A stretch of 64,000 nucleotides of DNA from an uncultured Christensenellaceae bacterium (GCA_944380295.1 CALWHE010000001.1:1172-65171); one strand, 5' to 3'. Counted from the stretch's first letter, positions 11,676-53,977 are shown. Made by a program: numbers and translations. The notes: generated by a model not told the origin, from the sequence alone.

Positions 11676-11676
11676 T

Positions 11677-11866
11677 GTCCTGCGCAAGGGCGCAATGAGC
11701 GATAAGCGAAGAAATGCGCCCTTGCTTCGGACGTGAAATTTTTGCGCAGATATAAGTGAGCGGTAAGCGAACATATCTTCTGCGCAAAAGTGAAATGTTT
11801 TTGCTTTATGAAGCAAAAACGTGAAATGTGCCCTCAAACCGCAAGCGACGAGAGGGCACGTGAAAT
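11677..11866 (-). repeat. core unit C1 (ATTTCAC dialect)
   Basis: GTGAAAT at 11733, 11790, 11821 and 11860 on the plus strand. h4-h3-h2-h1 in reverse. Confidence 0.9.
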
Positions 11867-12305
11867 GCACGACGATACAGCTCCGCGCTCGTCGTGCGTG
11901 GCGGCTGGGAGCGCGGGGCGCTCCATCCCTAATCAAGCCTTGAAGTAACTTGTTCGTCTATCCGGCTAATCTCTTCACAATGCTTACACAGCAAAATATA
12001 ATAAAGCGCGGGCAGCGTGACGCTGCACCCTTTATATGCTTCGCAGTAACGGAACCGTCGGTTATCGAGGCTCTTCGAACTAATATTTGTTGGGTATATA
12101 ACGATACTAACGGCATGACCATTCACACAATTATGCATTTGGAAATAAGGGTGCAGCGTCACGCTGCCCTGGCAGGCGCTGTTAAGGGTGCGCGGCTGTA
12201 TCGACTTTCTGTCGCTCTTACTATGTTTATAACATTTAATTTGATGTGCCCACAGCACCGCAACGTCCGCGATGCGCCGTGCTATGCACGGCAGTATGAG
12301 CGGGC

Positions 12306-12496
12306 ATTTCACGTGCTCTTTCGTCGCGGAGCGGTTTAAGAGCACATTTCACGTTTTTGCTTTGTAAAGCAAAAACATTTCACTTTTGCGCGGAAGTAAT
12401 GTTCGCTAGCCGCTCACATATATCCGCGCAAAAATTTCACATCCGGAGCAAGGGCGCATTTCTTCGCTTATCGCTCATTGCGCCCTTGCGCAGGAC
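12306..12496 (+). repeat. core unit C2 (ATTTCAC dialect)
   Basis: Four ATTTCAC linkers. h1 allele GTGCTCTT/AAGAGCAC. Confidence 0.9.
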
Positions 12497-12520
12497 ATAA
12501 AGGGGTGCAGCGTCACGCTG

Positions 12521-12608
12521 CCCGGGCAGGCGCTGTTAAGGGTGCGCGGGAGAGTGATGGATTTGCGTGCAGGTTTGGACGGCGGGGGCGCAGGCAATAC
12601 TCTTGCGG
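12521..12608 (+). repeat. module LH, 5' half only (tandem partial duplicate)
   Basis: Near-identical to 12643-12730. Confidence 0.85.
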
Positions 12609-12642
12609 CTCATAATGATATGCTGTTTCGATAACTATTAAT

Positions 12643-12807
12643 GCCGGGCAGGCGCTATTAAGGGTGCGCGGGAGAGTGATGGATTTGCGTGCAGGTTTGG
12701 ACGGCAGGGGCGCAGGCAATACTCTTGCGGTATTGTCAAGCCCCCGCCGTTCAAAGATGTGCGTAAAGACGCACTCTCCCGCGTGCCCTTGATAGCGCCT
12801 GCCCGGC
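12643..12807 (+). repeat. module LH (165-nt long hairpin, 36-bp basal stem)
   Basis: GCCGGGCAGGCGCTATTAAGGGTGCGCGGGAGAGTG pairs with CACTCTCCCGCGTGCCCTTGATAGCGCCTGCCCGGC. All three non-Watson-Crick positions are T:G or G:T. Confidence 0.85.
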
Positions 12808-12833
12808 AAAAGAAAAAAACTTTTTCATTTCTC

Positions 12834-12863
12834 TTGACATTCGCTTTTATCTTATAGTATACT
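12834..12863 (+). promoter_or_regulatory. candidate promoter of infC-rpmI-rplT
   Basis: TTGACA, 18 nt, TATACT. Confidence 0.5.
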
Positions 12864-12998
12864 GTGCAAGACAGCAAAGCAGAAGCACTTTCTCACCTGC
12901 CGCGCGGGGCGCAGGCACGGTCAATAAAAAGCCATATCGGCGGTGAAAGTATTGTCTGCTTTTGCCGCCTATTTTATTACCTGAGGGAGGGACTACCT

Positions 12999-13517
12999 AT
13001 CAAAGAGCTTGCTATTAACGGACAGATCCGTGCGCGTGAAGTGCGTCTTTTGGACAAAGACGGAAGCCAGCTGGGCATCATGTCTTCGTTGGAGGCGCTG
13101 AGGAGGGCGGAAGAACAAAATTTGGATCTGGTGCTCATATCGCCCGTTGCCAATCCGCCGGTGTGTAAGATCATGGATTACGGAAAATACAAATACGAAA
13201 CCATGAAAAAGGAAAAGGAGAACAAGCGCAACCAAAAGGTAGTGGAAGTCAAGGAAGTGTGGCTGTCTGTGGTCATCGACGTGGGCGATCTGAACACAAA
13301 GGCGCGCCAGGCGGGCAAATTCCTTGAAAGCGGCAATAAGGTCAAGGTATCCATCCGCCTCAAAGGCAGGCAGCAGGCACGCCCGGAGATGGCGGTGAAG
13401 GTGCTGAACGATTTTTATGAGATGGAACAGATAAAAGAAGTGGCGCAAATGGACAAACCGCCCGTTGCAGAGGGCAGGAACGTGACCATGATGCTGCTTC
13501 CGATAAATAAAAAATAA
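12999..13517 (+). CDS. infC: translation initiation factor IF-3, probable non-AUG (AUC) start
   Basis: [22 protein letters not shown] matches the conserved IF-3 N-terminus. SD GAGGGAGGG lies 7 nt upstream of ATC 12999. No in-frame ATG/GTG/TTG sits near the SD. Confidence 0.85.
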
Positions 13518-13537
13518 CTGCAAAGGAGTATAGAGTA

Positions 13538-13729
13538 ATGCCTAAACAGAAATCTCACAGCGGCGCCAAAAAGCGTTTTACGCTCACCGGCGGCGGCAAG
13601 TTGAAAAGAGCAAAGATGAACAGGCGCCACATTCTCACCAAAAAGGCGTCCAAGAGAAAGCGCGGTTTGCGCAAGACCGCCTACGTTTCCGTAACGCAGG
13701 AAAAGACCATTAAGAACATGATAGGATAA
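13538..13729 (+). CDS. rpmI: 50S ribosomal protein L35
   Basis: 63 aa, [14 protein letters not shown]... Classic L35. SD AAAGGAG. Confidence 0.9.
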
Positions 13730-13742
13730 CAGGAGGCGCCAT

Positions 13743-14096: not shown

Positions 14097-14106
14097 CGCA
14101 AAACAC

Positions 14107-14132: not shown

Positions 14133-14139
14133 GTTTGGA

Positions 14140-14898: not shown

Positions 14899-14921
14899 AA
14901 TAATTTTCGGAGGAAACAGAC

Positions 14922-16959: not shown

Positions 16960-17450
16960 TGCGTATCTTAGGCATAGACCCCGGACTTGCCATTGTCGGT
17001 TACGGCGTGATAGACAGTGAAAAGGGCAAAAACAGCGTGGTGGATTACGGCGTGATCACCACGCCCAAAGAGGAAAAACTGCCCGCGCGCCTGCACCTCA
17101 TCTATGACGGTCTTTCCGCATTGATAGACAAATTCAAGCCCGACTGCATGGCGATAGAGGAGCTGTTTTTCACCAAAAACATCACCACGGGCATCGCCGT
17201 GGCGGAAGCGCGCGGCGTTATCCTGCTGTGCGCCACGCACAAGCTGGGGCACATCTTCGAGTATACGCCCAACCAGATCAAAGAAGCGCTCACCGGTTAC
17301 GGCAAAGCCACCAAAACGCAGATGCAGTTCATGGTCACCCGCCTTTTGGGACTTACCGCCGTGCCCAAGCCGGACGATGCCGCCGACGCTTTGGCGGTGG
17401 CGCTCACGCAGGCGCAGACGGGGAGGTTATCGGGCATTTTCCGAGTTTAA
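16959..17450 (+). CDS. ruvC: crossover junction endodeoxyribonuclease RuvC
   Basis: MRILGIDPGLAIVGYGVI plus the catalytic acidic residues. 163 aa. Confidence 0.9.
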   Translation: MRILGIDPGLAIVGYGVIDSEKGKNSVVDYGVITTPKEEKLPARLHLIYDGLSALIDKFKPDCMAIEELFFTKNITTGIAVAEARGVILLCATHKLGHIFEYTPNQIKEALTGYGKATKTQMQFMVTRLLGLTAVPKPDDAADALAVALTQAQTGRLSGIFRV

Positions 17451-17515
17451 GCGAAAAACAAAAGGGATAGGGCGGATATGGTTTTATGCCATATCTGCCC
17501 TTTTGTTTTTCGCTT
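17449..17515 (+). repeat. module T (66-nt hairpin starting in the ruvC stop codon)
   Basis: AAGCGAAAAACAAAAGGG...CCCTTTTGTTTTTCGCTT. Confidence 0.9.
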
Positions 17516-18240
17516 GCTGAAAGACAACCCCGGCATTCGCAATCGATATTATCATTCCAACATACTTTTATTCAGGGTGCAGCACCGCACTGCTCCGCCT
17601 CTTTGCCGTGAGATCGATTGCTTGAGCCGCGGTTTTCTCTCTTTTTGCGGGCGGCGTAATCTCGTATCGCACTTGGTCTTACCGCAAAAATTCACTCTTT
17701 CCGCCGCCGCGGGCGCGGCGCGCAAGGCAGCCGCCTTGCCCAAGGTGCGCTCACCGAAAAGCGCGGTTTTCGGTGGCGGGATATTTGATAAGCGAAAGAC
17801 AACCCCGGCATTCGCAATCGACATATCATTCCAACATACTTTTACTTGGTGTGCAGCGTTAAGCTGCCTCAGCCACTCTGCCATGAAATCGATTGCTTGA
17901 GCCGTGGTTTTCTCTCTTTTTGCGGAACGGAATAACGCTGTTGTGCGGAGAGATATGTATATTAAAGAATACGCTCTTGCAGGGGAATAAGACAGCGTGG
18001 TCACCACGCCACTCTTTCCGCCCTCATTCGCTTCACAAGTTCCGCTCATTCGGAAAATGCGCACGGCGCATTTTAGAGGTGACGCTTGGCAAAAGTGTGA
18101 TTTTGCCGCGCTTTATTACACTTTATCAGGGTGCAGCGTTACGCTGCCGTTCCGCGCTCCGGGTGCAGCGCTATACTTTGATAGCGCCGCAGGCAACCGC
18201 CACGTTTGCGATGCGCCGCTTTGCGGCAGTATGAGCGGAC

Positions 18241-18434
18241 ATTTCACGTGCCCTCTCGTCGCTTGCGGATTGAGGGCACATTTCACGTTTTTGACAACGA
18301 GTTGGCAAAAACATTTCACTTTTGCGCAGCAGATATACATTCGCTTACCGCTCATTTATATCTGCGCAAAAATTTCACGTCCGGAGCGGCGGCGGATCTG
18401 CTTGGAATAATTGTTATTCCGCCGCCGCGCAGGA
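18241..18434 (+). repeat. core unit C3 (ATTTCAC dialect)
   Basis: Four linkers. h4 allele GGCGGCGGA/TCCGCCGCC. Confidence 0.9.
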
Positions 18435-18440
18435 TATCAC

Positions 18441-20140: not shown

Positions 20141-21188
20141 AACTTCCGATTTTGATTATTATCTTCCTCCCGAACTCATCGCGCAGCACCCCTTGGAGCG
20201 GCGCGATTCTTCACGCCTTGCCGTTTTTCATAAAGACAGCGGAAAGATAGAGCACCGCGTTTTTTCCGACGTGGCGGAATATCTGCGCGCCGGGGACGTG
20301 CTGGTGCTCAACGATACGCGCGTGATACCCGCGCGCCTTTTGGGCGTGCGCATATCTTCCGCCGTGCCGCTCGAAAAGGCGCCCGAACACGAAAAAAATT
20401 GCGAAGCGCTGCTCTTAAAGCGGCTTTCGCTCACGCAGTGGGAATGCCTTGTGCGCCCGGGCAGAAAGCTGCTCACGGGTGCGCAGGTGTGGTTTTCGCC
20501 CCGCCTCAGCGCGCGCGTGCAAGAGGTGCGCGAAGAGGGCGTGAGGGTGCTGGAATTTGCGTGCGACGGCGTGTTCGAAGAGGTGCTTGAAGAGGTGGGA
20601 AGCATGCCGCTTCCGCCTTATATCACAGAAAAATTGCAGGATAACAGCCGTTATAACACCGTTTACGCGCAGGTGAACGGCTCTGCCGCCGCACCCACGG
20701 CGGGACTGCACTTCACACCGGAGCTGCTGCAAAAGCTGAAAGACAAGGGCGTGGCGATCGCGCCCGTGCTGCTGCACGTGGGCTTGGGCACTTTCCGTCC
20801 CGTCAAAGAAGAGGACGCGTCCAAACACAAAATGCACAGCGAATATTACGAGATCTCCGAGCAGAGCGCGCAAATCATCAACGCCGCGCGCAAAAACGGC
20901 GGCAGGGTGGTGTGCGTGGGCACCACGTCCGTGCGCACTCTGGAAAGCGCCGCCGCAGAAGACGGCACGCTCAGCGCCTGCCGCGGCAGCACGCAGATCT
21001 TTATCTATCCCGGCTATAAGTTCAAGTGCACAGACGCGCTCATCACCAACTTCCACCTGCCCAAATCGACCCTAATAATGCTCGTTTCCGCTTTTATCGG
21101 CAGAGAAAACACTTTGCGGCTTTATAACGAGGCGGTGAAGGAGAGGTATAGGTTTTTTTCGTTTGGGGATTCGACTCTTCTTATATAA
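20133..21188 (+). CDS. queA: S-adenosylmethionine:tRNA ribosyltransferase-isomerase
   Basis: [21 protein letters not shown]-terminus and C-terminal FSFGD motif typical of QueA. Confidence 0.92.
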
Positions 21189-21253
21189 GCGAAAGAGAAA
21201 AAGGATAAGGCGGGTCCCGTTTTCAACGGGATCTGCCTTTTCCTCTTTCGCTT
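21187..21253 (+). repeat. module T (covarying copy starting in the queA stop codon)
   Basis: AAGCGAAAGAGAAAAAGG...CCTTTTCCTCTTTCGCTT. Confidence 0.9.
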
Positions 21254-21862
21254 GCTGAAAGACAACCCCGGCATTGGAGATAGGCGCCGAGTGAAAGTGC
21301 CGTGCGATAAAGCATTTTAATGTTCTAACGATATCGGCGCACAGCACTTTGCGCCTACGTGTGAGGGGCAAACCCGACACGCTCCGCTGCGGTTTTCCCC
21401 TCGTTTTGCGGCGAGATATAGGAAAGCGTGCAAGCCTTAGCCGCAAAACTTCACCCCTTTCCGCCGCCGCGGGAGCGGCGCGCAAGGCAGTCGCCTTGCC
21501 CAAGGTGCGCTCACCGAAAAGCGCGGTTTTCGGTGGCGGGAAGTTGCACTTTTAGTTTGGGGTGCAGCGGCACGCTGCCGCTCCACAAGTTCCGCTCAAT
21601 CGGAAAATGCGCACGGCGCATTTTAGAGGTGTGCTCACCGAAAAGCGCGGTTTTCGGTGGCAGGATATTACAACATGTTTTTCAGTTTTTGGCAAGGGCG
21701 TTCTGTCCACTAAAGTGGACACTTCAAAAGGAGAGCAAAGGTATTGTCTGTTTATTAGATTTGTCCACTTTTGTGGACAGCTGTTTTTGTGGATAGCGGT
21801 ATATTCCAATAGCGCCGCAGGCAGCCGCCACGCACGACGAGCGCGGAGCTGTATCGTCGTGC

Positions 21863-22051
21863 ATTTCACGTGCCCTCTCGTCGCTTGCGGTTTGAGGGCA
21901 CATTTCACGTTTTTGCCTTGCAAGGCAAAAACATTTCACTTTTGCGCGGAAGTTATGCTCGCTGGGCGCTCACATATATCCGCGCAAAAATTTCACGTCC
22001 GTAGCGGCACGGCGCACTTTCATTTATAGATTTTGCCGTGCCGAGCAGGAC
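21863..22051 (+). repeat. core unit C4 (ATTTCAC dialect)
   Basis: Four linkers. h4 allele GGCACGGC/GCCGTGCC. Confidence 0.9.
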
Positions 22052-22196
22052 ATAAAGGGGTGGAGCGCCCCGCGCTCCCGTCACGCTGCCGATTTTGTGG
22101 ACAGCTGTTTTTGTGGATAGCGGTATATTTCAATAGCGCCGCAGGCAGCCGCCACGTCTGCGATGCGCCGTGCTGTGCGCGGCAGTATGAGCGGAC

Positions 22197-22389
22197 ATTT
22201 CACGTGCCCTCTCGTCGCTTTGCGGTTTGAGGGCACATTTCACGTTTTTGCCAATGTGTTGGCAAAAACATTTCACTTTTGCGCAGCAGTATACGTTCGC
22301 TTACCGCTCACTTGTATCTGCGCAAAAATTTCACGTCCGGAGCGGCACGGCACTCTCTCGCTTATAGATTTTGCCGTGCCGCGCAGGAC
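22197..22389 (+). repeat. core unit C5 (ATTTCAC dialect), representative copy
   Basis: Linkers at 22197, 22237, 22270 and 22328. Hairpins h1 22204-22236, h2 22244-22269, h3 22277-22327, h4 22335-22389. Confidence 0.9.
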
Positions 22390-22396
22390 ATTTTTC

Positions 22397-24524: not shown

Positions 24525-24893
24525 ATGACCAAAATAGCAAAAACGGATATATTCGACTTGCTGCGCGCGCTGCTGATCGCGCTGCTCTTTTCCGTGGCGG
24601 GAGTGATAGTGCTCGCCGTGATCGCCAAATTCGCCGATCTGAGCGCGGGCGTGGTGGGCGGCGTCAATATCGCCGTCAGAATGCTGGCGCTGCTCACGGG
24701 CGTTTTGCTGGGCGTAAAGGGCGGACGCGCCGCGATCAAGGGCGTGCTGACGGGACTTTTGTTCGCGCTGTGCACTTATTTTATCTCCGTCATCGTGGCG
24801 GGCGGCTTTTCCGCCTCTTCCATGACCGTGTTCGACGCGCTCGCCTGCGCGCTAGCCGGGCTTATCAGCGGCGGGATAAAGGCGATGGCGTAG
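24525..24893 (+). CDS. small four-helix membrane protein (TIGR04086-like, the type usually found beside SCIFF loci)
   Basis: 122 aa, Gly/Ala/Leu-rich hydrophobic helices, SD AAAGGAGGA. Family call is from memory of the yajC-TIGR04086-scfA-scfB context. Confidence 0.6.
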   Translation: MTKIAKTDIFDLLRALLIALLFSVAGVIVLAVIAKFADLSAGVVGGVNIAVRMLALLTGVLLGVKGGRAAIKGVLTGLLFALCTYFISVIVAGGFSASSMTVFDALACALAGLISGGIKAMA

Positions 24894-25199
24894 CGTGACG
24901 CTGCACTCTGATATGCTCTGAAATTGCAAAAAAATAGCAACGCATCATAACGCTTCGCACAAATAATATGTATTGACATGCGGACGTTTCACGTGCCTTT
25001 TCCGTGAGTGCGTAAGCGTTTTGCATTGCGGTCACATATATCGGGGTGGAGCGCCCTGCGCTCCCCGCCACGCACGACGAGCGCGGAGCTGTATCGTCTT
25101 TCTGTCGCTCTTGCTATGTTTTGTAACATTCTATTTAATGTGCCCACAGCACCGCCACGTCCGCGATGCGCCGTGCCGTGCACGGCTGTATGAGCGGAC

Positions 25200-25389
25200 A
25201 TTTCACGTGCCCTCTCGTCGCTTGCGGTTTGAGGGCACATTTCACGTTTTTGCCTTGTGAGGCAAAAACATTTCACTTTTGCGCGGAAGTAATGTTCGCT
25301 AGCCGCTCACATATATCCGCGCAAAAATTTCACGTCCGGAGCCGCCGAACACACTTGCGCTTATTTGATTTTGTTCGGCGGCGCAGGAC
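25200..25389 (+). repeat. core unit C6 (ATTTCAC dialect)
   Basis: Four linkers. h4 allele CGCCGAACA/TGTTCGGCG. Confidence 0.9.
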
Positions 25390-25393
25390 ATAA

Positions 25394-25540
25394 AAGGGTG
25401 CCCAGAAGGGCGATGGATTTGCGTGTGATTTTGGACAAAGGTGCCGCAGGCAATACTCTTGCGGTATTGTCAAGGCGCATTTGTGCAAAAGCGCGCGTAA
25501 AGACGCACTCTCATGCGTGCCCGCATAGCGTCTGCCCGGC
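25394..25540 (+). repeat. module LH, copy with degenerate 5' arm
   Basis: Shares GATGGATTTGCGTG...GCAGGCAATACTCTTGCGGTATTGTCAAG...GTAAAGACGCACTCTC with the other copies. Confidence 0.8.
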
Positions 25541-25554
25541 AGAGAAAAAAATTC

Positions 25555-28785: not shown

Positions 28786-30239
28786 TGGCGAACAATAAGA
28801 ACAAGAACTATCAGCCGCCTTACAAAAAGAAAAAGACTCAAAAGCCCGCGCCCGCGGAAGAGCTCTTGCAGGCGCAGGACGTGACCGCGGCGGAAGAGAG
28901 CGCCGCCGAGGCGCCCGCGGAAAACATCGCTCCCGTGGCGGGACCCGCGGAAAACATCGCTCCCGCAGAGCAAGCGCCCGCGGAAAAAGCCGCAGAGCAG
29001 GCGCCCGCGGAAGCCGCCGAGCAAGCCGCACCGCAGGAAGCCGCGGCTGCCGGCAAGCCGCTCAAAGGCGGCAGTCTGGCAGACAAGTGGAGCCGCTTCC
29101 GTCTGACCTCTTTCTGGCGCATTTGGGTGAGCATACCCTTTGTGGTGATAGCCATCGCCATCATCTGTTTCGGCGCTTACGCCGGGCAGGGCGGCGCGTT
29201 TGAAAACGGTATCAATATCGGTATCGACTTCAAGGGCGGCACCATCATCACCACCAAACTGGGCGAAGACATCGTGCAGAACGATTACGACGAATATTAC
29301 GACATTATCGAGGGTGCCATCAACGATGCGGCGATAGCGGACGAGGTGATCGCATACGCGCAGGAAAACGAAATATCTTCCTCGCTCACGCAGAACGTGG
29401 TGATCCCCAACATCAACTATACGCAGACTTCCGGCGTGGGAGAAGAGATGGCTATCGTGTTCAAGATAGACAACATCTCCTCTTCTTTCGACAACGAAGC
29501 CAACGACATCACTCGTTACCGCAACGGGCTTATCCTGGAAAAGATAGCCGCGGACATCAACGCGCGTTTCGGGGAAAAAGAGGTGTCCGACCGCGTTTAC
29601 GTGAACGAAGACATCACGTCCGAATATATCGGCGCTTCCGCAAGTTCGCGTCTGCTCATGCTGGGCGGTATCGCGCTTTTGGTGGCGATCGTGGTGATAC
29701 TTGTTTACGTCATGATCAGGTTCGAAGTGTTCAGCGGTCTGTCCGCGGTGATAGCGCTGATACATGACGTTGCCATCATGTTCTGCATCACCATCATCTT
29801 CCGCATCCAGGTGAACGCGGCGTTCGTATCGGCGATAATCACCATCGTGGCTTACTCCATCAACAATACGATAGTCATTTTCGACCGCGTGCGTGAGAAC
29901 AACAAGATAGCCAAAAAGCTGGCGGAGAACAACGCCGCGCTGAGCGCGTCTTCCACGCTGCGCCCCCTGGTGGACAGGTCGGTGCGCGAAACCACTCTGC
30001 GCAACTTCAACTCCACGATAACCACCTTGGTGATGATCTTGCTCTTCTCCATCATCGGCACTTCTTCCGTGCGCGAGTTCGGCGTGCCGGTCATAGCGGG
30101 ACTGGTGGGCGGTTTCTATTCGTCCATGTTCCTCTCTCCTTCGCTCTATATCCTGATGAAGGAAGCGGACGAAAAACGCAAAGCCAAAAAGGCGGCGAAA
30201 AAGGCAGCCGCTCCAACGGCGCAAAAAGCAAAGGCTTGA
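28785..30239 (+). CDS. secF: protein translocase subunit SecF with about 100-aa Pro/Ala/Glu-rich N-terminal extension
   Basis: TAATG overlap with secD. Core GIDFKGGT...AYSINNTIVIFDRVREN is SecF. Confidence 0.9.
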   Translation: MANNKNKNYQPPYKKKKTQKPAPAEELLQAQDVTAAEESAAEAPAENIAPVAGPAENIAPAEQAPAEKAAEQAPAEAAEQAAPQEAAAAGKPLKGGSLADKWSRFRLTSFWRIWVSIPFVVIAIAIICFGAYAGQGGAFENGINIGIDFKGGTIITTKLGEDIVQNDYDEYYDIIEGAINDAAIADEVIAYAQENEISSSLTQNVVIPNINYTQTSGVGEEMAIVFKIDNISSSFDNEANDITRYRNGLILEKIAADINARFGEKEVSDRVYVNEDITSEYIGASASSRLLMLGGIALLVAIVVILVYVMIRFEVFSGLSAVIALIHDVAIMFCITIIFRIQVNAAFVSAIITIVAYSINNTIVIFDRVRENNKIAKKLAENNAALSASSTLRPLVDRSVRETTLRNFNSTITTLVMILLFSIIGTSSVREFGVPVIAGLVGGFYSSMFLSPSLYILMKEADEKRKAKKAAKKAAAPTAQKAKA

Positions 30240-30240: not shown

Positions 30241-30267
30241 AAAAAAGCGGCGCGAGCCGCTTTTTTT
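30241..30267 (+). terminator. rho-independent terminator after secF
   Basis: A6-GCGGC-GCGA-GCCGC-T7. Confidence 0.8.
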
Positions 30268-30472
30268 GTCCTGCGCGGCACGGCAATGAGCGTAAGCGAA
30301 AGGATGCCGTGCCGCTCCGGACGCGATATATTTTGCCTTTGCAATCATTTACATAAGTCAAACACTCCTAACGGCAAAATGCGATATGTCGGCTTTGCCG
30401 ACGCGATATGTCCTGCGCGGCGGCGGAATAACATTTGCCCCATCGGATCCGCCGCCGCTCCGGACGCGATAT
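30268..30472 (-). repeat. core unit C11 (ATATCGC dialect)
   Basis: GCGATAT at 30323, 30381, 30403 and 30466 on the plus strand. Confidence 0.9.
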
Positions 30473-30569
30473 ATTTTGCCGTGCCAAACATTTAGAATAA
30501 GCGTAAAAGCACCAAACGGCAAAATGCGGCGGTATCTTGCGGCATTCTGCCGCAAATCAAAATCATATA

Positions 30570-30721
30570 TTGTTGTTGCGAAGAGTAACGCTTATCGGTA
30601 TTTTATATTGCTGCGAAGCATATCAAGGGTGCAGCGTCACGCTGCTTGTTGTTGCGAAGAGTAACGCTTATCGGTATTTTATATTGCTGCGAAGCATATC
30701 AAGGGTGCAGCGTCACGCTGC
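30570..30721 (+). repeat. perfect tandem duplication, 76 bp x2, inside island I5
   Basis: TTGTTGTTGCGAAGAGTAACGC...GGGTGCAGCGTCACGCTGC occurs twice without a mismatch. Confidence 0.9.
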
Positions 30722-30923
30722 CGCCGCAGGCAGCCATTACATTTTGCCGTTGACATATCTTATGTGCTTGTTTATGATGATAATTATGCCGGACAGGCGC
30801 TATGCGGGCACGCAGTAGAGCGCGGCTTTACGCACATCTTTGGACGGTGGGGTATTCAAATAGCGCCGCAGGCAGCCGCCACGTCCGCGATGCGCAGTGC
30901 TATGCACGGCAGTATGAGCGGAC

Positions 30924-31115
30924 ATTTCACGTGCCCTCTCGTCGCTTGCGGATTGAGGGCACATTTCACGTTTTTGCCTTGCTAGGCAAAAACATTTCAC
31001 TTTTCGGCAGAAAGAGTAGCGGCGCTTGTGCAACCGCTATATCTGCCGAAAAATTTCACGTCCGGAGCGGCGGCGGATTTGTTTGGAATATTGTTTTTCC
31101 GCCGCCGAGCAGGAC
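30924..31115 (+). repeat. core unit C7 (ATTTCAC dialect)
   Basis: Four linkers. h3 allele TTTTCGGCAGA/TCTGCCGAAAA. Confidence 0.9.
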
Positions 31116-31126
31116 ATAACGCCGCC

Positions 31127-38267: not shown

Positions 38268-38317
38268 TATATTAACGTGGGGACAGGACCGCGTAGTTTA
38301 TGTTAAGAGGTTCGATT

Positions 38318-41300
38318 ATGAGGGAAAGCGTAAAGTTGCATTCGTCTTTCAAATTCGTGGTGGCGATGATTTTGGTGGCCGCGCTTTGCGTCGCGGCTTT
38401 TTCTCCGCTCTTCGCGCCCGCGTCCGCCGCGGCGGAAGCCTGGCAGGGCACGGCGACGTATCAGCTCGGCAACGGCTACACACAGGATACAGTCATTCCC
38501 GGCGCGTATAAAGTGGTATGCGACGGCGTTACATACGATTCCGGCGTGCCCGAAGTCTTGGGCGAGATAGCGCCGAATGCGGGCTATAAATTCGTCGGCT
38601 TCCAAGATAACGGCGGCACTTTGGTGGCTGAGTTCGACGGCGACGATACCTTTACCGTGACGGAAGCGTTCATCAATGCGACCGGCACTTATACTCTGAT
38701 CCCCGCCTTCGAAGTGATAGAATACAAAATAACTTACGATCTGAACGTGCCGAGCGGCGTGACGGCGCAGCCCTCCAACCCCAACACGGCAAAAACTTAC
38801 ACGGTCGAGGATAACCCCGTCGCTTTGGCGGTGCCCACGCTGGCGGGCTGGGAATTCGGCGGCTGGCAGCTGCCGAACGACGACATCGTGCAGCAGATAG
38901 ACTCTTCCCTGATAGCTGCTCTGACAGCGGACGGCGAGCTGCCCGGTAACGAGTTGGTTCTTACGGCGCAGTGGGCGGAACAGACCTTCACGCTCACCGT
39001 GATGATAGATCAGACCAAAATAGAATACGAAGCCATCCCCGGCGTGTCGATCGGTAACTATATCGGCGCTCTCACTCCCGAAGACAAGGGCGACTCCGAA
39101 CAATTTTTGGGCTGGGAGATGGACGGCAAGATCATCGATGTGATGACCACGCTCATGCCTGAGAAAAACACCACGGTCAACGCCAAATTCGGCATTCCCT
39201 CAGTTCACGTGAGCTTTATCGTTAAAAAAGCCACGGTGGAAGACGCAAACAAGTTCGATACAAAAAATGATATATTTATCGAAGTCACGGAAGGAACATA
39301 TACTCCCGAAGCGCTTGCCGCGCAAGCGGGTAGCAAGCTTAACTATACCGGATTCACCCGCACGTCGGTCACCTGGGAAGACGGCACCGATGCAGCCAAA
39401 GAGGTGAGCGGTTCGTGCTCCGTAGTGTGCATTTATGAGCGCGACCAATGCAATCTGCTCATCCATTATCGTTACGACCTCAACGGCGACGGCATTCCCG
39501 ACGACATAGACGGCGACGGCGAGGCGGACATCGCGGCGTTCGATGTGCGTGACAGCGGCGTTTACGGCGACAGATACGAAAAGTCTTCTCCGCAGATAAA
39601 GGGCATGCAGGCGCTCACGGGCACGGTGGCGGGCATATATGACAGAGATTTCACGGAAGTGACCGTGCTTTACACCACCGCTCCGGACAAGCGCAAGGCG
39701 GAACTGGGCGGCATAGGCGGCACGGTCACCAATGACGAAGGCGGCTTGATAGACGCCGCCGTCAGCGTCACCTGGGATCCGGCGGCTGCGGGCGCGCACA
39801 GTGCCATGGCGGCAGGCACGGGCAACGAAGCTTACGGCGTGCTCTCCGTGGAGATAGCGGAAGCGGAAGGCGCGGTGTTCGGCGCCCGCGGCGTTTACAC
39901 TCTCACCGTGGACCTGGGCGAGAGCATGGCGGACAAGACTTATTATAATGTATATAAAATAAATGACGACGGCACATACGCGCCCATCTCCGTCAGATAC
40001 AGCGGCAGCACTCTGGTGCTCACGGTAGACGCCGCCGGCGATTATCTGGTCACCGGCACGCCCGTGCAGGACAACACGCTGCTTTGGGTGCTCATCGCGC
40101 TACTCATCCTGCTGCTCATCCTGCTGATAGTGCTGTTGCTCGTCCTGTTGCTGCTGAGCAAAAAGACGGTCAGCTTTGAAGTGAACGGCGGCGAAGAAGT
40201 GGATAAGATAAAAGCCAAGAAGGGCAACGTGATAGAACTGCCTCTGCCCGAACGCGAAGGTTACGAATTTGCCGGCTGGTATCTGGACGAAGAGTGCACG
40301 ATCCCCGCGCCGCTCGAACCGGGAGAGGCGGACAAAGACGAAGCGCCCGCCGAGGACAAAAAGGGCAAAAAGGATAAAAAAGCCAAAAAGGACAAGAAAG
40401 GCAAAAAGGCGGCGCCCGTAGAAGCGCCCGCGGAAGAAGCCCCTGCGCAAGAAGCCCCTGCGGAAGAAACGCCGGCAGAGGAAGCGCCCGCGGCAGAAGC
40501 CCCGGCGGACGAGGCTCCGGCAGAGGAAACCCCTGCCGAAGAAGCTCCCGTGGAAGCGCCTGCGGAAGAAGCCCCGGCAGAAGCGCCTGCGGAAGAAGCC
40601 CCGGCAGAAGCGCCTGCGGAAGAAGCCCCGGCGGAAGCGCCTGCGGAAGAAGCCCCGGCGGAAGCGCCTGCGGAAGAAGCCCCGGCGGAAGCGCCTGCGG
40701 AAGAAGCCTCGGCAGACGAGGCTCCCGCAGAGGAAGCGCCCGCGCAAGAGCAAAGCGAAGAGATCAGGATATATGACGAGCCGGACGGCAAAGACGTCAC
40801 CGACGAACAAAAAGGAGGAGGCACCACCGATACCATGAGTTCCAAACGCGCCAAAAAGGCAAAAAACAATAAGCCGGCGGCTCCCGCCGCGGCAGAGGAA
40901 CAAGCCCCTGCGGAAACTCCCGCCGAGGAAGTCCCTGCCCAAGCGCCCGCGGAAGAAACTCCCGCAGAGGACGCCCCCGCGGCAGACGCGCCCGTGGAAG
41001 AAACTCCCGCCGAGGACGCCCCCGCGGCAGACGCTCCCGTCGAGGAAGTCCCCGCGGAAGAAGCGCCGGCGGAAGTCCCCGCGGAAGAAGTTCCCGCAGC
41101 TGACGCCCCCGCAGAAGCTCCTGCGGAAGACGCTCCCGCAGCGCCCGCTGAATTTGTGTTGCCGGAGGTCATGCGCTTCAAGGTGACGGGCAGCGTAAAA
41201 CTTTACGCCAAGTGGAAAGAGATAGTGCCGGAAGAGGCGCACGCGGTCAACTTTGTCGCCTGCGGCGTTATCCAGAGCACGGTCAAAACGATGGGCAAAG

Positions 41301-42949
41301 AGCCTGTTGCCGTGCCCGCGGCGCCCGCGTTGCCCGGATACGCCTTTGCCCGCTGGATCTTCAAGGACAAAAAGGGAGAAGAGGTCGCCTTTACGGAAAG
41401 CACGCTGGCGGACAAATATCTGCTGGAAGATCTCAACGTCATCGCCGATTACATCAAGGTGGTGCCCAAGATCAGATTTTATGCCTGCGGCGTGTTGCAG
41501 CGCACGCTGGAAGTGCAGGGCATCTGCGCCGTGCAGCTTCCCGAAGCGCCCGCGCTGGAAGAATACCGCTTCTGCAACTGGTATACCCTGCAAAACGGCG
41601 CGCAGGTGCCGTTCACGGGCAGAGAGACCGCGCAGAGTTATCTGACGGAAGATCTGAACGTCTATGCCGAATATATCAAGCCGGTGCCCGTGGCGGAAGC
41701 GCCCGAACCTCACCTCATCACCTTTATGGCGGACGGCGAGGTGGTGGCTACCATAGAAACCGCCGGCAGGGACGCGCTCGATCTGCCCGCCGCGCCCGTC
41801 AAGGAAGGCTTTGTCTTCCGCGGCTGGTTCACGGACGAAGAAAAGCACAACGAGGTGGTGGAAGAGAGCAGTTATGTGGATAAGGATCTTGAAGAGGATC
41901 TGATCCTTTACGCCTTCTATGAAGAAGAGAAGGAGCCGGAAAAGGAAGAAGATTTTGCCGCGGCTGCCATCTTGCCGGAAGAAGACGATGAAGAGCCGGA
42001 GGAAGAGCCGGAAGAAGAGGACGAAACCCCCGAAGTGGAAGAGAAAGAAGACGACGAAGAAGAGCCGGAAGAAGAGCTCGAACCGGGCGCGCCCAGGATG
42101 ATCACGGCGGCGGACGCCATCAAGCGCCGCACGTCCACCATGCGCGGACGTCTGAGATACGGTTCGGACGTGAACAAAGCCATATACGAAGAGCTGGTCA
42201 ACCACCTGTTGCAGTTCAAGAACGTGTCCCGTTCGCTCACCAACAGGGCGGACAACTTCAAGAGCAAGGGCGCGCTGCTTGCCAAGATCACGCTCACGGG
42301 CAAAACGCTCAAACTCTATCTGCCTCTGGACGCTGAGCAATACGATTACGACAAGTATCATCAGCTCATCACGGAAAAGAAGGGCTATGAAGAAGTGCCT
42401 TTCACCATCAAGGTCAAATCCAACCGCGGCTTGAAATATGCCAAGGAACTGATAGACGAAGCCATGGCGCAGGCGGGCGTGGAACGCAAGAAGAAGGCGG
42501 GCGAGAAGAAGAGCTTCAAGGAGCTGATCCTGCTGCAAAAGGGCAGCCTGCTCATCAAGAACAAAAAGACGGAAAAGCTGCGCTCGCGCGTAGACTCGCA
42601 GGACGCCAACGCCCAGCTCACGGACGCGGAGGCGCAGGAGCTGATCAGGATCAAATACGTGCCCGTGTCCGACGAGGTGAAAAAGACGGCTTTCGTGGGC
42701 TTGGACAAGATAGAAGATCTTTACAACGACTGCGACATGGTCAACATCAAAACGCTGCGCAAGCGCGGGCTGGTCAAAGACGAGCATAACCGCGTGAAGA
42801 TAATCGGCGGCGGCACGCTGACCAAATCGCTCAAAGTTTATGCGGACGAATATTCGCTCACGGCGGTCAAGATGATCGTGCTTTTGGGCGGCAAAGTGGT
42901 CAAAAACGTGGAAGAAAGCGTGGAAAAACCGGAAGAGGGCAAGCAATAA
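38318..42949 (+). CDS. about 1543-aa repeat protein: signal peptide, Listeria-Bacteroides (Flg_new-type) repeats, central hydrophobic helix, further Flg_new-type repeats, Pro/Ala/Glu tandem repeats, acidic tract, uL15-like C-terminal segment
   Basis: Start moved to ATG 38318 behind AAGAGG. Repeat signatures such as GYKFVGF, LAGWEFGGW, REGYEFAGWY, LPGYAFARW and KEGFVFRGWF. Terminator at 42971-42996. Confidence 0.75.
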   Translation: MRESVKLHSSFKFVVAMILVAALCVAAFSPLFAPASAAAEAWQGTATYQLGNGYTQDTVIPGAYKVVCDGVTYDSGVPEVLGEIAPNAGYKFVGFQDNGGTLVAEFDGDDTFTVTEAFINATGTYTLIPAFEVIEYKITYDLNVPSGVTAQPSNPNTAKTYTVEDNPVALAVPTLAGWEFGGWQLPNDDIVQQIDSSLIAALTADGELPGNELVLTAQWAEQTFTLTVMIDQTKIEYEAIPGVSIGNYIGALTPEDKGDSEQFLGWEMDGKIIDVMTTLMPEKNTTVNAKFGIPSVHVSFIVKKATVEDANKFDTKNDIFIEVTEGTYTPEALAAQAGSKLNYTGFTRTSVTWEDGTDAAKEVSGSCSVVCIYERDQCNLLIHYRYDLNGDGIPDDIDGDGEADIAAFDVRDSGVYGDRYEKSSPQIKGMQALTGTVAGIYDRDFTEVTVLYTTAPDKRKAELGGIGGTVTNDEGGLIDAAVSVTWDPAAAGAHSAMAAGTGNEAYGVLSVEIAEAEGAVFGARGVYTLTVDLGESMADKTYYNVYKINDDGTYAPISVRYSGSTLVLTVDAAGDYLVTGTPVQDNTLLWVLIALLILLLILLIVLLLVLLLLSKKTVSFEVNGGEEVDKIKAKKGNVIELPLPEREGYEFAGWYLDEECTIPAPLEPGEADKDEAPAEDKKGKKDKKAKKDKKGKKAAPVEAPAEEAPAQEAPAEETPAEEAPAAEAPADEAPAEETPAEEAPVEAPAEEAPAEAPAEEAPAEAPAEEAPAEAPAEEAPAEAPAEEAPAEAPAEEASADEAPAEEAPAQEQSEEIRIYDEPDGKDVTDEQKGGGTTDTMSSKRAKKAKNNKPAAPAAAEEQAPAETPAEEVPAQAPAEETPAEDAPAADAPVEETPAEDAPAADAPVEEVPAEEAPAEVPAEEVPAADAPAEAPAEDAPAAPAEFVLPEVMRFKVTGSVKLYAKWKEIVPEEAHAVNFVACGVIQSTVKTMGKEPVAVPAAPALPGYAFARWIFKDKKGEEVAFTESTLADKYLLEDLNVIADYIKVVPKIRFYACGVLQRTLEVQGICAVQLPEAPALEEYRFCNWYTLQNGAQVPFTGRETAQSYLTEDLNVYAEYIKPVPVAEAPEPHLITFMADGEVVATIETAGRDALDLPAAPVKEGFVFRGWFTDEEKHNEVVEESSYVDKDLEEDLILYAFYEEEKEPEKEEDFAAAAILPEEDDEEPEEEPEEEDETPEVEEKEDDEEEPEEELEPGAPRMITAADAIKRRTSTMRGRLRYGSDVNKAIYEELVNHLLQFKNVSRSLTNRADNFKSKGALLAKITLTGKTLKLYLPLDAEQYDYDKYHQLITEKKGYEEVPFTIKVKSNRGLKYAKELIDEAMAQAGVERKKKAGEKKSFKELILLQKGSLLIKNKKTEKLRSRVDSQDANAQLTDAEAQELIRIKYVPVSDEVKKTAFVGLDKIEDLYNDCDMVNIKTLRKRGLVKDEHNRVKIIGGGTLTKSLKVYADEYSLTAVKMIVLLGGKVVKNVEESVEKPEEGKQ
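40562..40712 (+). repeat. intragenic perfect tandem repeat, 27-nt unit x5 plus a partial unit (AEEAPAEAP)
   Basis: GCGGAAGAAGCCCCGGC(A/G)GAAGCGCCT repeated head-to-tail. Units differ only at one synonymous position. Confidence 0.9.
40952..41041 (+). repeat. intragenic tandem repeat, 45-nt unit x2 (EETPAEDAPAADAPV)
   Basis: Two adjacent 45-nt units differ at 3 synonymous positions. Confidence 0.85.
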
Positions 42950-50982: not shown

Positions 50983-50986
50983 GAAT

Positions 50987-51053
50987 AAGCGAAAAACAAA
51001 AGGGATAGGGCGGATATGGTTTTATGCCATATCTGCCCTTTCGTTTTTCGCTT
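50987..51053 (+). repeat. module T (copy after the ABC gene; its TAA is an in-frame second stop)
   Basis: Nearly identical to the I2 copy. Confidence 0.9.
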
Positions 51054-51589
51054 GTTTGAGGGGACACCCCGCCATTCAAAAATAAAACGAACAAGCGGAG
51101 ATATAGGCGCAATATATCGCCGTTTTATTTTTTTGAGGCGTAGTTTCCCCTCTTTTTGCGGGCGGCATAATCTCGTATCGCACTTGGTCTTACCGCAAAA
51201 ATTCACCCTTTCCGCCCTCATTCGCTCCGCGTGCTCCGCTCACTCGGAAAATGCGCACGGCGCATTTTAGAGGTGACGCTTGGCAAAAGTGTGATTTTGC
51301 CGCGCTTTATTACACTTTATTGTGTAAGCATTGCAAAGAGTTCAGCTGAAAATACGGAAAAGTTACTTCAAGGCTTTATCAGGGATGGAGCGCCCCGCGC
51401 TCCGGGTGCAGCGTCACGCTGCCGCTCGTCCAAAAGTGCGATTTTGGACGGCGGGATATTACACTTTATCGTGTAAGTATTGCAGAGAGATTAGCCGGAA
51501 AACGAACAAGTTACTTCGAGGCACGATCGGGGGTGGAGCGCCCCGCGCTCCCCGCCACGCACGACGAGCGCGTAGCTGTATCGTCGTGC

Positions 51590-51831
51590 ATTTCACGTGC
51601 CCCTCTGTGAGCGCGCAAGTTCTTCACATTGCGGTCACATATGATCGGGGTGCAGCGTCACGCTGCTTTGAGGGCACATTTCACGTTTTTGCCAATGTGT
51701 TGGCAAAAACATTTCACTTTTCGGCGTTTGTCATGTTCGCTTTTCGCTCACATTGGCAACGCCGAAAAATTTCACGTCCTGAACAAGGGCGCACACTTTC
51801 GTTTATCGCTCATTGCGCCCTTGTGCAGGAC
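51590..51831 (+). repeat. core unit C8 (ATTTCAC dialect) with 64-nt h1 loop
   Basis: The h1 arms at 51597-51605 and 51670-51677 enclose other modules. h3 allele TTTTCGGCGTT/AACGCCGAAAA. Confidence 0.9.
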
Positions 51832-51836
51832 ATTTC

Positions 51837-51863
51837 TTGACTTTTTCCCGCATTGCATATAAT
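51837..51863 (+). promoter_or_regulatory. candidate promoter of the M16 peptidase gene, near-leaderless
   Basis: TTGACT, 15 nt (short), TATAAT. The ATG at 51873 has no SD. Confidence 0.35.
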
Positions 51864-51872
51864 ATATCTGTT

Positions 51873-53150
51873 ATGGAAAAGAATTTTTACACATTCCCGG
51901 ACGGGCTTAAATTGGTGCATTGCAGGGCGGACGGCGTTTATTCCGCCGCGCTCACCGTGATGACGGGGGCGGGCAGCGGTAACGAAACCGCGGAGAACAA
52001 CGGCATTTCCCATTGCGTGGAGCACATGCTCTTCAAGGGCACGGGCAGGCGCACGGCGTTTGAGATCAGCAACGACATAGACAAGCTGGGCGCGCAGTCC
52101 AACGCCTTCACTTCCAAACTTGCCACCGGTTATTACACGGTGGGGCTTGCCGAGCATTTGGAAGAGTGCGCGGACGTTTTATCCGACATACTCACAAACA
52201 GCACTTTCGATGACAAGGAGTTGGACAAAGAGCGCAAGGTGATAGACGAAGAGATCTCCATGAGCGAAGACGACGGCGCGGATCTGTGCCTGGACGAACT
52301 TTCGCGCGTTTATTTCGGCGATCACGCCTTGGGGCGCACCATTTTGGGACCGCGCGAAAACGTGGCGCGCTTCAAGGGCGCGGATCTGAGAAAATACGTT
52401 GCGGAGAATTACGCGTCCGACAGCACGGTGGTGTGCATTGCCGGCAATGTGGAGTTCGAGCGCGCCAAGGCGGTGGCGGAGCGCTATTTTGCGGGAAAAC
52501 TGCCGCGCCTGGGGCGCAGATGGCAGGACGAAAAGGCGCAGACCAAGCCCGGGCGCTTTGTGCGTGAAAAAGCGGACGAGCAGGCGCACCTCGGCATGGC
52601 TTTTCCCTCGCTGCCTTATAAGCACGAAAAAGACGCGGCGCTGGCGGTGTTCAACGCGGTGCTCGGGGGCAGCATGAGCAGCAGACTTTTCCAGGAAGTG
52701 CGGGAAAAAGAGGGCTTGGCATACAGCGTTTTTTCCGCCATGTCCACCTATATAAATAACGGCTATATGTGCGTTTACGCGGGCATAAATCCCGCCAATG
52801 CGGAAAGGGCGGCGCACACGATAGCGCGCGTGATCAAGGAGATAAAAACCACCCGTCCCATCACCCGGGAAGAGCTGGAGAGGGGCAAGGAACAGATAAA
52901 AACCGCTTACGCGCTCTCCGGAGAAAACATGGGCGGCTGCGCTTCGCTCTACTCTAGATACGCCCTCTATACCGGCGAACTTTTGGACACGGGCAGGGAG
53001 ATAGAGCGCGTGCAAAAGGTGACTTTGGACGATATGGCTTGGCTGGCGGAACACATTTTGCGCCCTGAAGCGGCAAGCATATCTTACGTGGGCAAAAACG
53101 CCGAGGGGAAAGGGGAAAGGTTGTCCTGCGCGGCACGGCAATGGCGATAA
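51873..53150 (+). CDS. M16-family (pitrilysin/insulinase-like) zinc peptidase
   Basis: Start moved to ATG 51873. Inverted zinc motif HCVEH. The last 9 codons and the stop lie inside a repeat module. Confidence 0.8.
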   Translation: MEKNFYTFPDGLKLVHCRADGVYSAALTVMTGAGSGNETAENNGISHCVEHMLFKGTGRRTAFEISNDIDKLGAQSNAFTSKLATGYYTVGLAEHLEECADVLSDILTNSTFDDKELDKERKVIDEEISMSEDDGADLCLDELSRVYFGDHALGRTILGPRENVARFKGADLRKYVAENYASDSTVVCIAGNVEFERAKAVAERYFAGKLPRLGRRWQDEKAQTKPGRFVREKADEQAHLGMAFPSLPYKHEKDAALAVFNAVLGGSMSSRLFQEVREKEGLAYSVFSAMSTYINNGYMCVYAGINPANAERAAHTIARVIKEIKTTRPITREELERGKEQIKTAYALSGENMGGCASLYSRYALYTGELLDTGREIERVQKVTLDDMAWLAEHILRPEAASISYVGKNAEGKGERLSCAARQWR

Positions 53151-53191
53151 GCGAAAGTGTGCCGTGCCGCTCCGGACGTGAATTTTTCTCT

Positions 53192-53355
53192 GCCGGACAG
53201 ACGCTATGCGGGCACGCAGTAGAGCGCGGCTTTACGCACGCCTTTGCACAAATGCGCCTTGACAATACCGCAAGAGTATTGCCTGCGGCACCTTTGTCCA
53301 AATCCGCACGCAAATCCATCGCCCTCCCGCGCACCCTTATAGACGTCTGTCCGGC
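53192..53355 (-). repeat. module LH, inverted copy
   Basis: Reverse complement aligns with 12643-12807. Same GGGTGCGC/GCGTGCCC wobble pair positions. Confidence 0.85.
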
Positions 53356-53395
53356 ATAATTATCATCATAAACAAACACATAAGATATACCAACT

Positions 53396-53509
53396 TCGCA
53401 AAAGTGAAATGTTTTGCCTGCAAGGCAAAACGTGAAATGTGCTCTTAAACCGCTCCGCGACGAAAGAGCACGTGAAATGCACGACGATACAGCTCCGCGC
53501 TCGTCGTGC
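53396..53509 (-). repeat. truncated core unit C9 (ATTTCAC dialect)
   Basis: GTGAAAT at 53404, 53432 and 53472. h4 and half of h3 are missing. Confidence 0.85.
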
Positions 53510-53771
53510 GTGGCGGTGCTGTGGGCACATTAAATAAAGTGTTATAAAACATAGCAAGAGCGACAGAAAGACGATACAGCTGCACGCTCGTCGTGCGTGG
53601 CGGGCAGCGTGCCACTGCACCCCCAATCGTGCCTTGAAGTCACTTTTCCGTTTGTTCGGCTTACCTCTTCGCAATGCTTACACGATAAAGTGTAATAAAG
53701 CGCCTCAGGCAGCCTTTACATTTTGCCGTTCGGCACAGTGCGGTTACTCAATACGTTTGTTACGGCAAAAT

Positions 53772-53977
53772 ATATCGCGTCCGGAGCCGCCGAACATTTT
53801 TATCGCTATTCGCTTTTGTTCGGTGGCGCAGGACATATCGCGTCGGCGCAGCCGACATATCGCTTTTGCGCAGCAGATATAAGTTTGCTAGCCGCTCACA
53901 TATATCTGCGCAAAAATATCGCGTCCGGAGCGGCACGGCACACTTTCGCTTATCGCCATTGCCGTGCCGCGCAGGAC
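53772..53977 (+). repeat. core unit C10 (ATATCGC dialect)
   Basis: ATATCGC at 53772, 53835, 53857 and 53916. Order is h4, GTCGGC-GCA-GCCGAC, h3, h4. Confidence 0.9.

Follow-up and report, generated by a model that had tools for sequence, protein, structure and literature searches.

Intergenic islands of palindromic modules in an uncultured gut Christensenellales genome contain long-form relatives of the Gut-1 motif and resemble REP/BIME clusters

What fills the long gaps between housekeeping operons in a 64,000-nucleotide (nt) stretch of an uncultured Christensenellaceae genome (GCA_944380295.1 CALWHE010000001.1:1172-65171; the whole stretch is called the window below, and positions count from its first letter)? 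Seven such gaps, here called islands, are occupied by hairpin-forming modules that recur in changing order and orientation. On balance we favor reading the islands as clusters of non-coding interspersed palindromic repeats, comparable to the repetitive extragenic palindromes (REP) and bacterial interspersed mosaic elements (BIME) of other bacteria, with a long-form relative of the Rfam motif Gut-1 (RF01706) as the main module. The modules stand at operon boundaries, are maintained as hairpins, are dispersed in multiple copies in several Clostridia lineages, and undergo rapid exchange, inversion, duplication, deletion and nesting.

Self-BLAST of the islands against the window confines repeated DNA to these seven gaps, 10.2% of its length (repeat blocks 11675-12817, 17449-18437, 21187-22391, 24892-25549, 30263-31122, 50984-51833 and 53122-53983), and a repeat finder agrees, returning families D4-D20 with three to nine copies each. 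Upstream, each island is bordered by the stop codon of a gene, and downstream by a sigma-70-like promoter of the co-directional operon that follows. Open reading frames (ORFs) within the islands have no Pfam match, and gene and Pfam scans revealed no transposase, integrase, reverse transcriptase or cas gene in the window or in ~9 kb beyond it. A preliminary description of the window had already drawn much of this picture: seven gaps filled from one shuffled library of hairpin modules in both orientations, about a tenth of the sequence, no reading frame preserved between copies and no mobility gene nearby, all of which is borne out. A caveat applies to the unusual density that it remarked on: the islands are clustered, with none in 1-11.6 kb, in 54-64 kb or in ~9 kb further downstream. 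Two independent metagenome assemblies from other samples recover islands 1-4, at 99.97% identity over 20.5 kb and 99.99% over 8.7 kb, so that the islands are not assembly artefacts.

The core module is an array in which five hairpins (h0-h4) alternate with four copies of one heptamer, ATTTCAC (reverse complement GTGAAAT). Eleven arrays were counted, as many as previously given for what had been taken as a four-hairpin core; nine carry ATTTCAC/GTGAAAT and two, in islands 5 and 7, carry ATATCGC/GCGATAT. The heptamer is concentrated in the islands, which hold 28 of the 33 ATTTCAC and seven of the nine GTGAAAT occurrences in 10.2% of the window. Where an island has two arrays, they stand head to head with their h4 ends outward (but island 3 has two tandem forward arrays), and as we read the islands the outward h4 adjoins either the stop codon before the island or the -35 box after it. 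Around the core lie accessory hairpins whose multiplicity also matches the earlier account. Hairpin T (family D16) has three copies, at 17449, 21187 and 50987, and the long hairpin LH has four full or partial copies (12525-12810, 25394-25540, 53190-53370 in reverse, and a fragment at ~30790-30850). The small hairpins are far more frequent than chance would allow in the window: GGGTGCAGCGTCACGCTGCC has 12 copies against 0.01 expected, GGAGCGCCCCGCGCTCC five against 0.05, CACCGAAAAGCGCGGTTTTCGGTG three against 0, and GTCCAC-N4-GTGGAC two against 0.05. Judged from its sequence, T is a good candidate intrinsic terminator, and the copies that start in the ruvC and queA stop codons are the two top-ranked terminator-like sites on the plus strand. 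Inverted h4 hairpins form the ends of islands 1 and 7, and the other islands begin with T or a small hairpin. A rule that both ends of an island share the same variable h4 stem fits the inner part of island 5 as well as islands 1 and 7, but strain L260 lacks the matched ends, and the rule was abandoned.

Does this array belong to a described family? At gathering thresholds, a scan of the window with Rfam returned a lysine riboswitch only and passed no array. When sub-threshold matches were taken by E-value reporting, nine arrays matched the Gut-1 model from position 1 to 77 of 77 at 22.3-35.4 bits (E = 5e-5 to 0.35), with large loop insertions. The arrays score under the Gut-1 gathering score of 50 bits because expansion of their loops and stems makes each hairpin 24-56 nt long. 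The preliminary description had recognized no Rfam RNA among the modules, a statement that stands at the gathering level and gives way below it. The window core is, as far as sequence comparison goes, a long-form relative of Gut-1 that falls below Rfam's own membership threshold. Gut-1 was defined from 43 examples, all in human-gut metagenome sequence, and was classed as RNA by covariation with no function proposed (Weinberg et al. 2010, PMC2864571); within the library searched, no later paper cites the family. The Gut-1 consensus, three hairpins with GUGAAAU between them, has the same grammar as the window arrays, and its seed already holds the heptamer variants GUGAUAU and GCGAUAU as well as neighboring inverted arrays; GCGAUAU-type and neighboring inverted arrays are also found in the window. 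Compensated stem variation and a gut-associated source are common to the two. The window arrays differ in carrying additional conserved loop motifs (TTCGCTTAYCGCTCA) and in being embedded in mosaics with other modules, and whereas Gut-1 was described as a stand-alone small RNA (sRNA) of unknown host, it appears here as an interspersed, strain-variable repeat. The long-form arrays also keep CCGC[AC]ACG ahead of h0.

The hairpins themselves are under evident maintenance. An alignment of 19 distinct long-form copies, drawn from the window, from other strains and from the Christensenellales genome Candidatus Caccalectryoclostridium excrementigallinarum, has five hairpins with the heptamers unpaired; its 50 pairs are paired in 98.7% of cells, and 18 of them are altered on both sides, values reached in none of 500 shuffles. 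Pairing falls to 39-52% in a control in which the partners are slid by one to three columns. The most variable part is the distal stem of h4, where eight of 11 pairs are compensated. On both strands, the predicted fold of the core is much more stable than that of shuffled sequence (z = -7.7 for DNA, -8.1 for RNA). The modules are thus kept as hairpins with strong compensated variation.

The array family is not peculiar to this genome, and sequence matches place it widely among uncultured gut Clostridia. When one genome of each GTDB species was scanned for the pattern, at least 112 stretches matched. The matches listed in metagenome-assembled genomes (MAGs) of gut Clostridia are true arrays of three to five short hairpins (stems of 4-8 bp) with ATTTCAC between them, several per genome and each copy with different stems; among the matches listed, such MAGs are labelled Eubacteriales, Candidatus Coproplasma, Oscillospiraceae, Ruminococcus and Pygmaiobacter. 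Matches in unrelated phyla proved on reading to be plain tandem repeats and were set aside. Rescanning 12 short-form loci gave 11 arrays above the Gut-1 gathering score, at 51-78 bits. The long forms of Caccalectryoclostridium are almost identical to those of the window, with array modules up to 90% identical where an orthologous ABC transporter gene is ~70% identical, and arrays with one expanded loop at loci L153 and L176 bridge the short and long forms. Identical arrays also occur at different loci (L170, L231 and L240; L220 and L225). In distant mode, PLSDB and INPHARED yielded no match to plasmid or phage records; JGI metagenomes gave five matches, and IMG/VR contigs two true arrays, which may represent prophage or misclassified Clostridia DNA. 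The IMG/VR arrays are at L263 1514-1588 and L271 6849-6960; one scores 59 bits, and that of L271 passes the strict pattern and lies below the gathering threshold. A generic scan of viral contigs for three GTGAAAT copies produced only chance matches and plain tandem repeats. As a separate observation on the short Gut-1 arrays (L133, L170, L231, L236, L240 and others), the ATTTCAC strand often has a conserved CTTCCTTAACG (or YAACG) ahead of the array, which is also preceded by a small GAAAACCGC...GCGGTTTTC hairpin in an AT-rich stretch.

Comparison of orthologous junctions reveals how quickly the islands turn over. The contigs compared, which encode identical RuvC, L20 or SCIFF proteins, come from the same strain, from other strains whose genes are 97-98.5% identical in nucleotide sequence, or from a sister species with 77-82% identity. 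In the other strains, orthologous islands differ in content, and their pieces often best match another island of the window. Ahead of infC, the junction measures as little as 288 and as much as 1304 nt among nine strains, with an h4 hairpin always first, right after the TGA stop, and the LH right arm and promoter always last. At single sites, h4, h0 and T are replaced by variants that differ at many stem positions and are fully complementary, and the heptamer beside a swapped h4 switches from ATTTCAC to ATATCGC. The h2 loop (CGAG versus CTCG) and the LH interior are found flipped, the LH left arm is tandemly duplicated, and other modules are inserted in the h1 and h3 loops. In the sister species, the junction between the DUF3792 gene and SCIFF has no island, only a 90-nt gap holding a promoter; islands of 0.7-2 kb, built from a partly shared library, lie instead at yajC|DUF3792 and scfB|secD, and ~20 kb of island sequence from this species contains no heptamer arrays. 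Because content varies in this way among strains, and because the modules are ~90% identical across genera where a gene is ~70% identical, the islands are not vertically conserved untranslated regions (UTRs); the BIME- or BOX-like design proposed for them in the preliminary description is upheld, with presence or absence and content varying strongly among related strains. Two other repeats were noted in islands of the sister species (L251 4590-4900; L246 11500-11900), both of operator or satellite appearance: about nine tandem copies of a ~34-nt unit with the perfect palindrome TGTCCACAAAAGTGGACA, and a ~60-nt tandem repeat in the secF|recJ gap.

Among described systems, there is also a close likeness to the REP, BIME and REPIN repeats of Proteobacteria, which are likewise short, multi-copy extragenic palindromes lying after genes, between co-directional or convergent genes, in inverted pairs and mosaic clusters, with conserved short linkers, strain variability and a possible role as terminators or mRNA stabilizers. 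The window repeats differ from these in having no GTAG, in a conserved element that is the heptamer between hairpins (ATTTCAC/GTGAAAT), in stems that are not conserved in sequence among copies, in a Clostridia host and in the failure to find a RAYT. The BOX elements of Streptococcus pneumoniae (boxA-boxB(n)-boxC), Correia/NEMIS and ERIC are also modular, non-coding, hairpin-forming and intergenic, with variable module number and order, but their module sequences are unrelated as far as testable, Rfam gives no match besides Gut-1, and the window library is much larger, shuffled in orientation and delimited by a single conserved heptamer. T resembles an intrinsic terminator in its GC-rich stem and T-run straight after stop codons, and differs in being a repeated, exchangeable unit with stem variants, an orthologous site showing many compensated changes among strains. 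Other candidates were set aside. Miniature inverted-repeat transposable elements (MITEs) do not fit, with no direct repeats at island or module borders and with mosaic copies rather than one defined near-identical unit. The repeat of a putative CRISPR array would be only 7 nt long, with "spacers" that are palindromes common to the copies and no cas genes. Transcription factor operators (Rex- or CRP-like half sites) and integron attC sites were rejected by inspection, the heptamers being direct repeats at variable spacing, between which palindromy and not sequence is conserved.

Signals conflict as to which strand folds, and whether it does so as RNA or as single-stranded DNA. Rfam places the structure on the GUGAAAU strand, where adjacent heptamer ends lengthen each hairpin by A-U and U.G pairs, and 18 of 26 single short-form arrays lie 0-40 nt past a stop codon and read GUGAAAU in the mRNA sense. 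Together with the classification of Gut-1 as RNA by covariation in Rfam and by Weinberg in 2010, the strong conservation of the heptamer beside free stems, the promoter-like sites inside islands 1 and 5, and common GNRA loops (though on the other strand), these features recommend the arrays as genes or 3'-UTR elements of a multi-copy structured RNA, the Gut-1 sRNA, whose single-stranded heptamers or GAA linkers would bind a protein or an RNA in the manner of a sponge, with other modules providing promoters and terminators. We consider this unlikely. Arrays stand in both orientations relative to flanking genes, mostly as inverted pairs around an AT-rich center; a promoter scan of the centers of array pairs found no consistent sites, and terminators fall on the two array strands in 8/32 and 5/32 cases, with no consistent strand. 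Arrays adjoin gene 3' ends and are rare between divergent genes (5/53). A stand-alone sRNA also sits poorly with 11 copies in 42 kb, with island content that is hypervariable among strains, and with loops and palindrome interiors that are found flipped. G.U pairs are almost absent: in the short forms there are six G:T and six A:C mismatches in 716 pairs, so that wobble is rare and symmetric, and many stem changes are GC<->CG exchanges, which together argue for DNA palindromes rather than stepwise RNA covariation. The ~19 G:T against four A:C cells of the long forms represent few independent events, and the attempt to assign the strand from this ratio was dropped for both forms. The loops of 126 short hairpins are A-rich on the ATTTCAC strand (48% A, 17% T), opposite to the strand of the Rfam annotation; 31 of 32 GNA triloops and all 14 GNRA tetraloops are closed by C-G, and triloops outnumber tetraloops by 73 to 46. 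C-GNA-G is a classic, very stable DNA mini-hairpin, and dominance of triloops is unusual for RNA. The wobble, exchange, terminator, promoter and orientation data are more in keeping with a DNA-level element than with a conventional sRNA gene.

How, then, would such a DNA-level element spread? One tentative possibility is that Gut-1-type arrays, rather than being sRNAs, are cassettes of very stable single-stranded DNA hairpins (C-GNA-G and C-GNRA-G loops, on the ATTTCAC strand), delimited by a 7-nt core site and recognized and reshuffled by an enzyme of single-stranded DNA; if true, they would be a Clostridia counterpart of REP/RAYT with a different grammar and a driver of hypervariable operon-boundary islands. 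A related proposal, which we think improbable, makes the modules non-autonomous mobile elements of the REPIN, MITE or PATE type, moved by a single-strand DNA transposase encoded elsewhere (an IS200/IS605 TnpA, a RAYT or a new enzyme) that would recognize a hairpin and flanking heptamer on the ATTTCAC strand. Recognition of a hairpin with a conserved flanking short motif is the logic of REP/RAYT and IS200/IS605 systems, which the arrays resemble. The C-G-closed loops of the short forms, mostly triloops and A-rich on one strand, a signature of very stable single-stranded DNA mini-hairpins, the inverted h4 hairpins at the ends of islands 1 and 7, the identical arrays at different loci, the nested insertions in hairpin loops and the patchy taxonomy, with modules ~90% identical across genera and absent from islands of the sister species, all agree with mobility. 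But the surroundings of the copies yielded no transposase, neither target-site duplications nor clean empty and filled pairs with defined ends came to light, copies are mosaic rather than uniform units, and the long-form loops of the window show no GNA bias. It is very improbable that short-read metagenome assembly across repeats created the islands or the strain differences. Modules 60-250 nt long and 80-95% identical do make assembly hard, and strain contig L258 has an N-run inside island 1; the near-identical recovery of four islands from different samples, the same variant haplotypes in several contigs (L256, L258 and L259) and the same modules in MAGs of other species from other studies nevertheless speak against it.

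Several points weigh against reading the islands as REP/BIME-like clusters. Distant Clostridia share the conserved heptamer, with stems free to vary, and array modules exceed an orthologous gene in identity between two genera (~90% against ~70%), which suggests a sequence-specific function or partner beyond plain recombination. Rfam curators class Gut-1 as RNA. The REP hallmark GTAG is absent from the islands, in which no target-site duplications were seen either, and no Y1/RAYT gene, other transposase or recombinase turned up in the window, over a further ~9 kb past its end or at ~48 loci of other genomes, a weak test given that RAYTs are single-copy. Some strain differences could, moreover, be inflated by short-read assembly errors in repeats. 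Y1/RAYT genes do occur in Clostridia, and when ORFs near the arrays at the ~48 loci were clustered, only ABC transporter and ilv (ilvB-region) genes recurred, with no transposase.

Under the REP/BIME-like reading, we infer that the family would be propagated and homogenized at the DNA level, probably through recombination or gene conversion between copies at different sites together with template switching inside palindromes, which would also keep stems perfect; a trans-acting enzyme of single-strand DNA may be involved. Because palindromic modules offer both direct and inverted homology, such routes would explain deletions, duplications and flips alike. The modules would be tolerated and partly used as punctuation at operon boundaries, serving in read-through termination, insulation or 3'-end protection, and in places may supply stop codons or promoter-like sequence. 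An orphan Rfam motif known in 2010 only from human-gut metagenome reads gains hosts in Christensenellales and other uncultured gut Clostridia; on the present reading it would be a strain-variable repeat, interspersed in multiple copies, and not one sRNA gene. A REP/BIME-like repeat system would also be documented in Clostridia, where such systems are poorly described. Inter-operon regions differ several-fold in length and content among strains with ~98% identical genes, which makes them possible strain markers, a source of regulatory variation and a hazard for metagenome assembly and binning. The islands offer a tractable case for the maintenance and exchange of palindromes, and the conflict between loop bias and Rfam strand makes the question of RNA or single-stranded DNA directly testable.

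Islands 1 to 4 show how the modules are combined. Island 1 (11676-12810), between an unknown 573-aa gene and infC, consists of a reversed array right after the TGA stop, a promoter-like site with small hairpins, a forward array, LH with a partial tandem duplication, and the infC promoter. Its reversed long-form Gut-1-like array (11675-11911, minus strand, with h0-h4 and four heptamers reading ATTTCAC on that strand) matches Gut-1 at 34.2 bits and the forward one (12261-12498, plus strand) at 35.4 bits; LH, a long imperfect palindrome of ~165 nt (family D13), occupies 12525-12810 on the plus strand together with a partial tandem copy of its left arm. The LH right arm abuts the infC promoter, and LH has the opposite orientation in strain L262. 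Island 2 (17449-18434, ruvC/ruvA) comprises T, accessory palindromes and a forward array that abuts the ruvA -35 box. Its T (17449-17515, plus strand) includes the ruvC TAA, has the terminator-like form of a hairpin followed by a T-run and is the second-ranked such site; its long-form array (18196-18437, plus strand) scores 33.1 bits. Island 3 (21187-22389, queA/tgt) holds a T with variant stems that includes the queA TAA (21187-21253, plus strand) and is the top terminator-like site, then accessory palindromes, among them the GTCCAC-N4-GTGGAC pair, and a tandem of two forward long-form arrays at 21818-22053 (28.1 bits) and 22152-22391 (34.9 bits), both on the plus strand. Island 4 (24890-25540, DUF3792 gene/SCIFF) has a small hairpin over the upstream stop codon, a forward long-form array (25155-25391, plus strand, 28.4 bits) and the long palindrome LH (25394-25540, plus strand, D13). 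The DUF3792 stop codon lies inside the small-hairpin copy at 24889-24908, so this repeat module supplies the C-terminus and stop codon of the protein; a TAG/CAG polymorphism there (also at loci L245 and L248, ~5440) yields 122 or 128 aa depending on the strain.

The remaining islands include the variant arrays. Island 5 (30268-31115, secF/recJ) contains a reversed GCGATAT-type array (~30268-30530, minus strand, with GCGATAT on the plus strand at 30323, 30381, 30403 and 30466), duplicated small-hairpin modules, a promoter-like module and a forward long-form array (30879-31117, plus strand, 31.6 bits). Island 6 (50987-51831, ABC exporter/M16 peptidase) begins with T (50987-51053, plus strand), followed by accessory palindromes and a forward array (~51545-51833, plus strand) whose h1 loop is interrupted by a ~70-nt nested insertion and which still reaches 22.3 bits. 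Island 7 (53123-53977, M16 peptidase/ftsK), with a Gut-1 match of 25 bits, consists of a reversed LH, a partial reversed long-form array with three heptamers (53393-53516, minus strand) and a forward ATATCGC-type array with four copies of the heptamer (53760-53977, plus strand); it is bounded by two identical h4 hairpins, inverted to each other. Strong sigma-70-like promoter matches (11 of 12 positions) lie inside islands 1 and 5, at 11974-12002 and 30750-30778, both on the plus strand; that of island 5 sits in a repeated module, with a reversed copy in island 7 at ~53345-53390. From these internal promoter-like sites, the islands may launch transcripts of their own.

The setting of the islands is that of a Clostridia-type Firmicute. 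The window has a GC content of ~55%, with nearly all genuine genes on the plus strand, and the immediate neighbors of the islands are housekeeping genes (infC, ruvC/ruvA, queA/tgt, DUF3792/SCIFF, secF/recJ, an ABC exporter, an M16 peptidase and ftsK). Wider gene content follows the same pattern (infC-rpmI-rplT, ruvC|ruvAB, queA|tgt, SCIFF with its maturase, secDF|recJ, relA, pnp, ftsK, recA and rny), and the host is an uncultured gut lineage of Christensenellales within the Clostridia. The lysine riboswitch (6884-7051, minus strand) scores 85.4 bits over the full model and lies upstream of a minus-strand gene ending at 5695-6732. The interval from island 1 to infC weakly matches the ribosomal protein L20 leader at 12871-12982 on the plus strand (27.3 bits against a gathering score of 58.7), and the infC start that the ORF finder placed at 12864 is probably too early. 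A 1549-aa ORF (38300-42949, plus strand) carries tandem Glu/Ala/Pro-rich coding repeats at 40380-41160, with periods of 12, 15 and 27 nt and matches to Listeria-Bacteroides repeats, and secF has a short APAE-type repeat akin to it at 28900-29040. Finally, the minus-strand ORF at 62736-63911 is probably spurious, as related contigs encode, at this position, a plus-strand MFS transporter of 665-670 aa.

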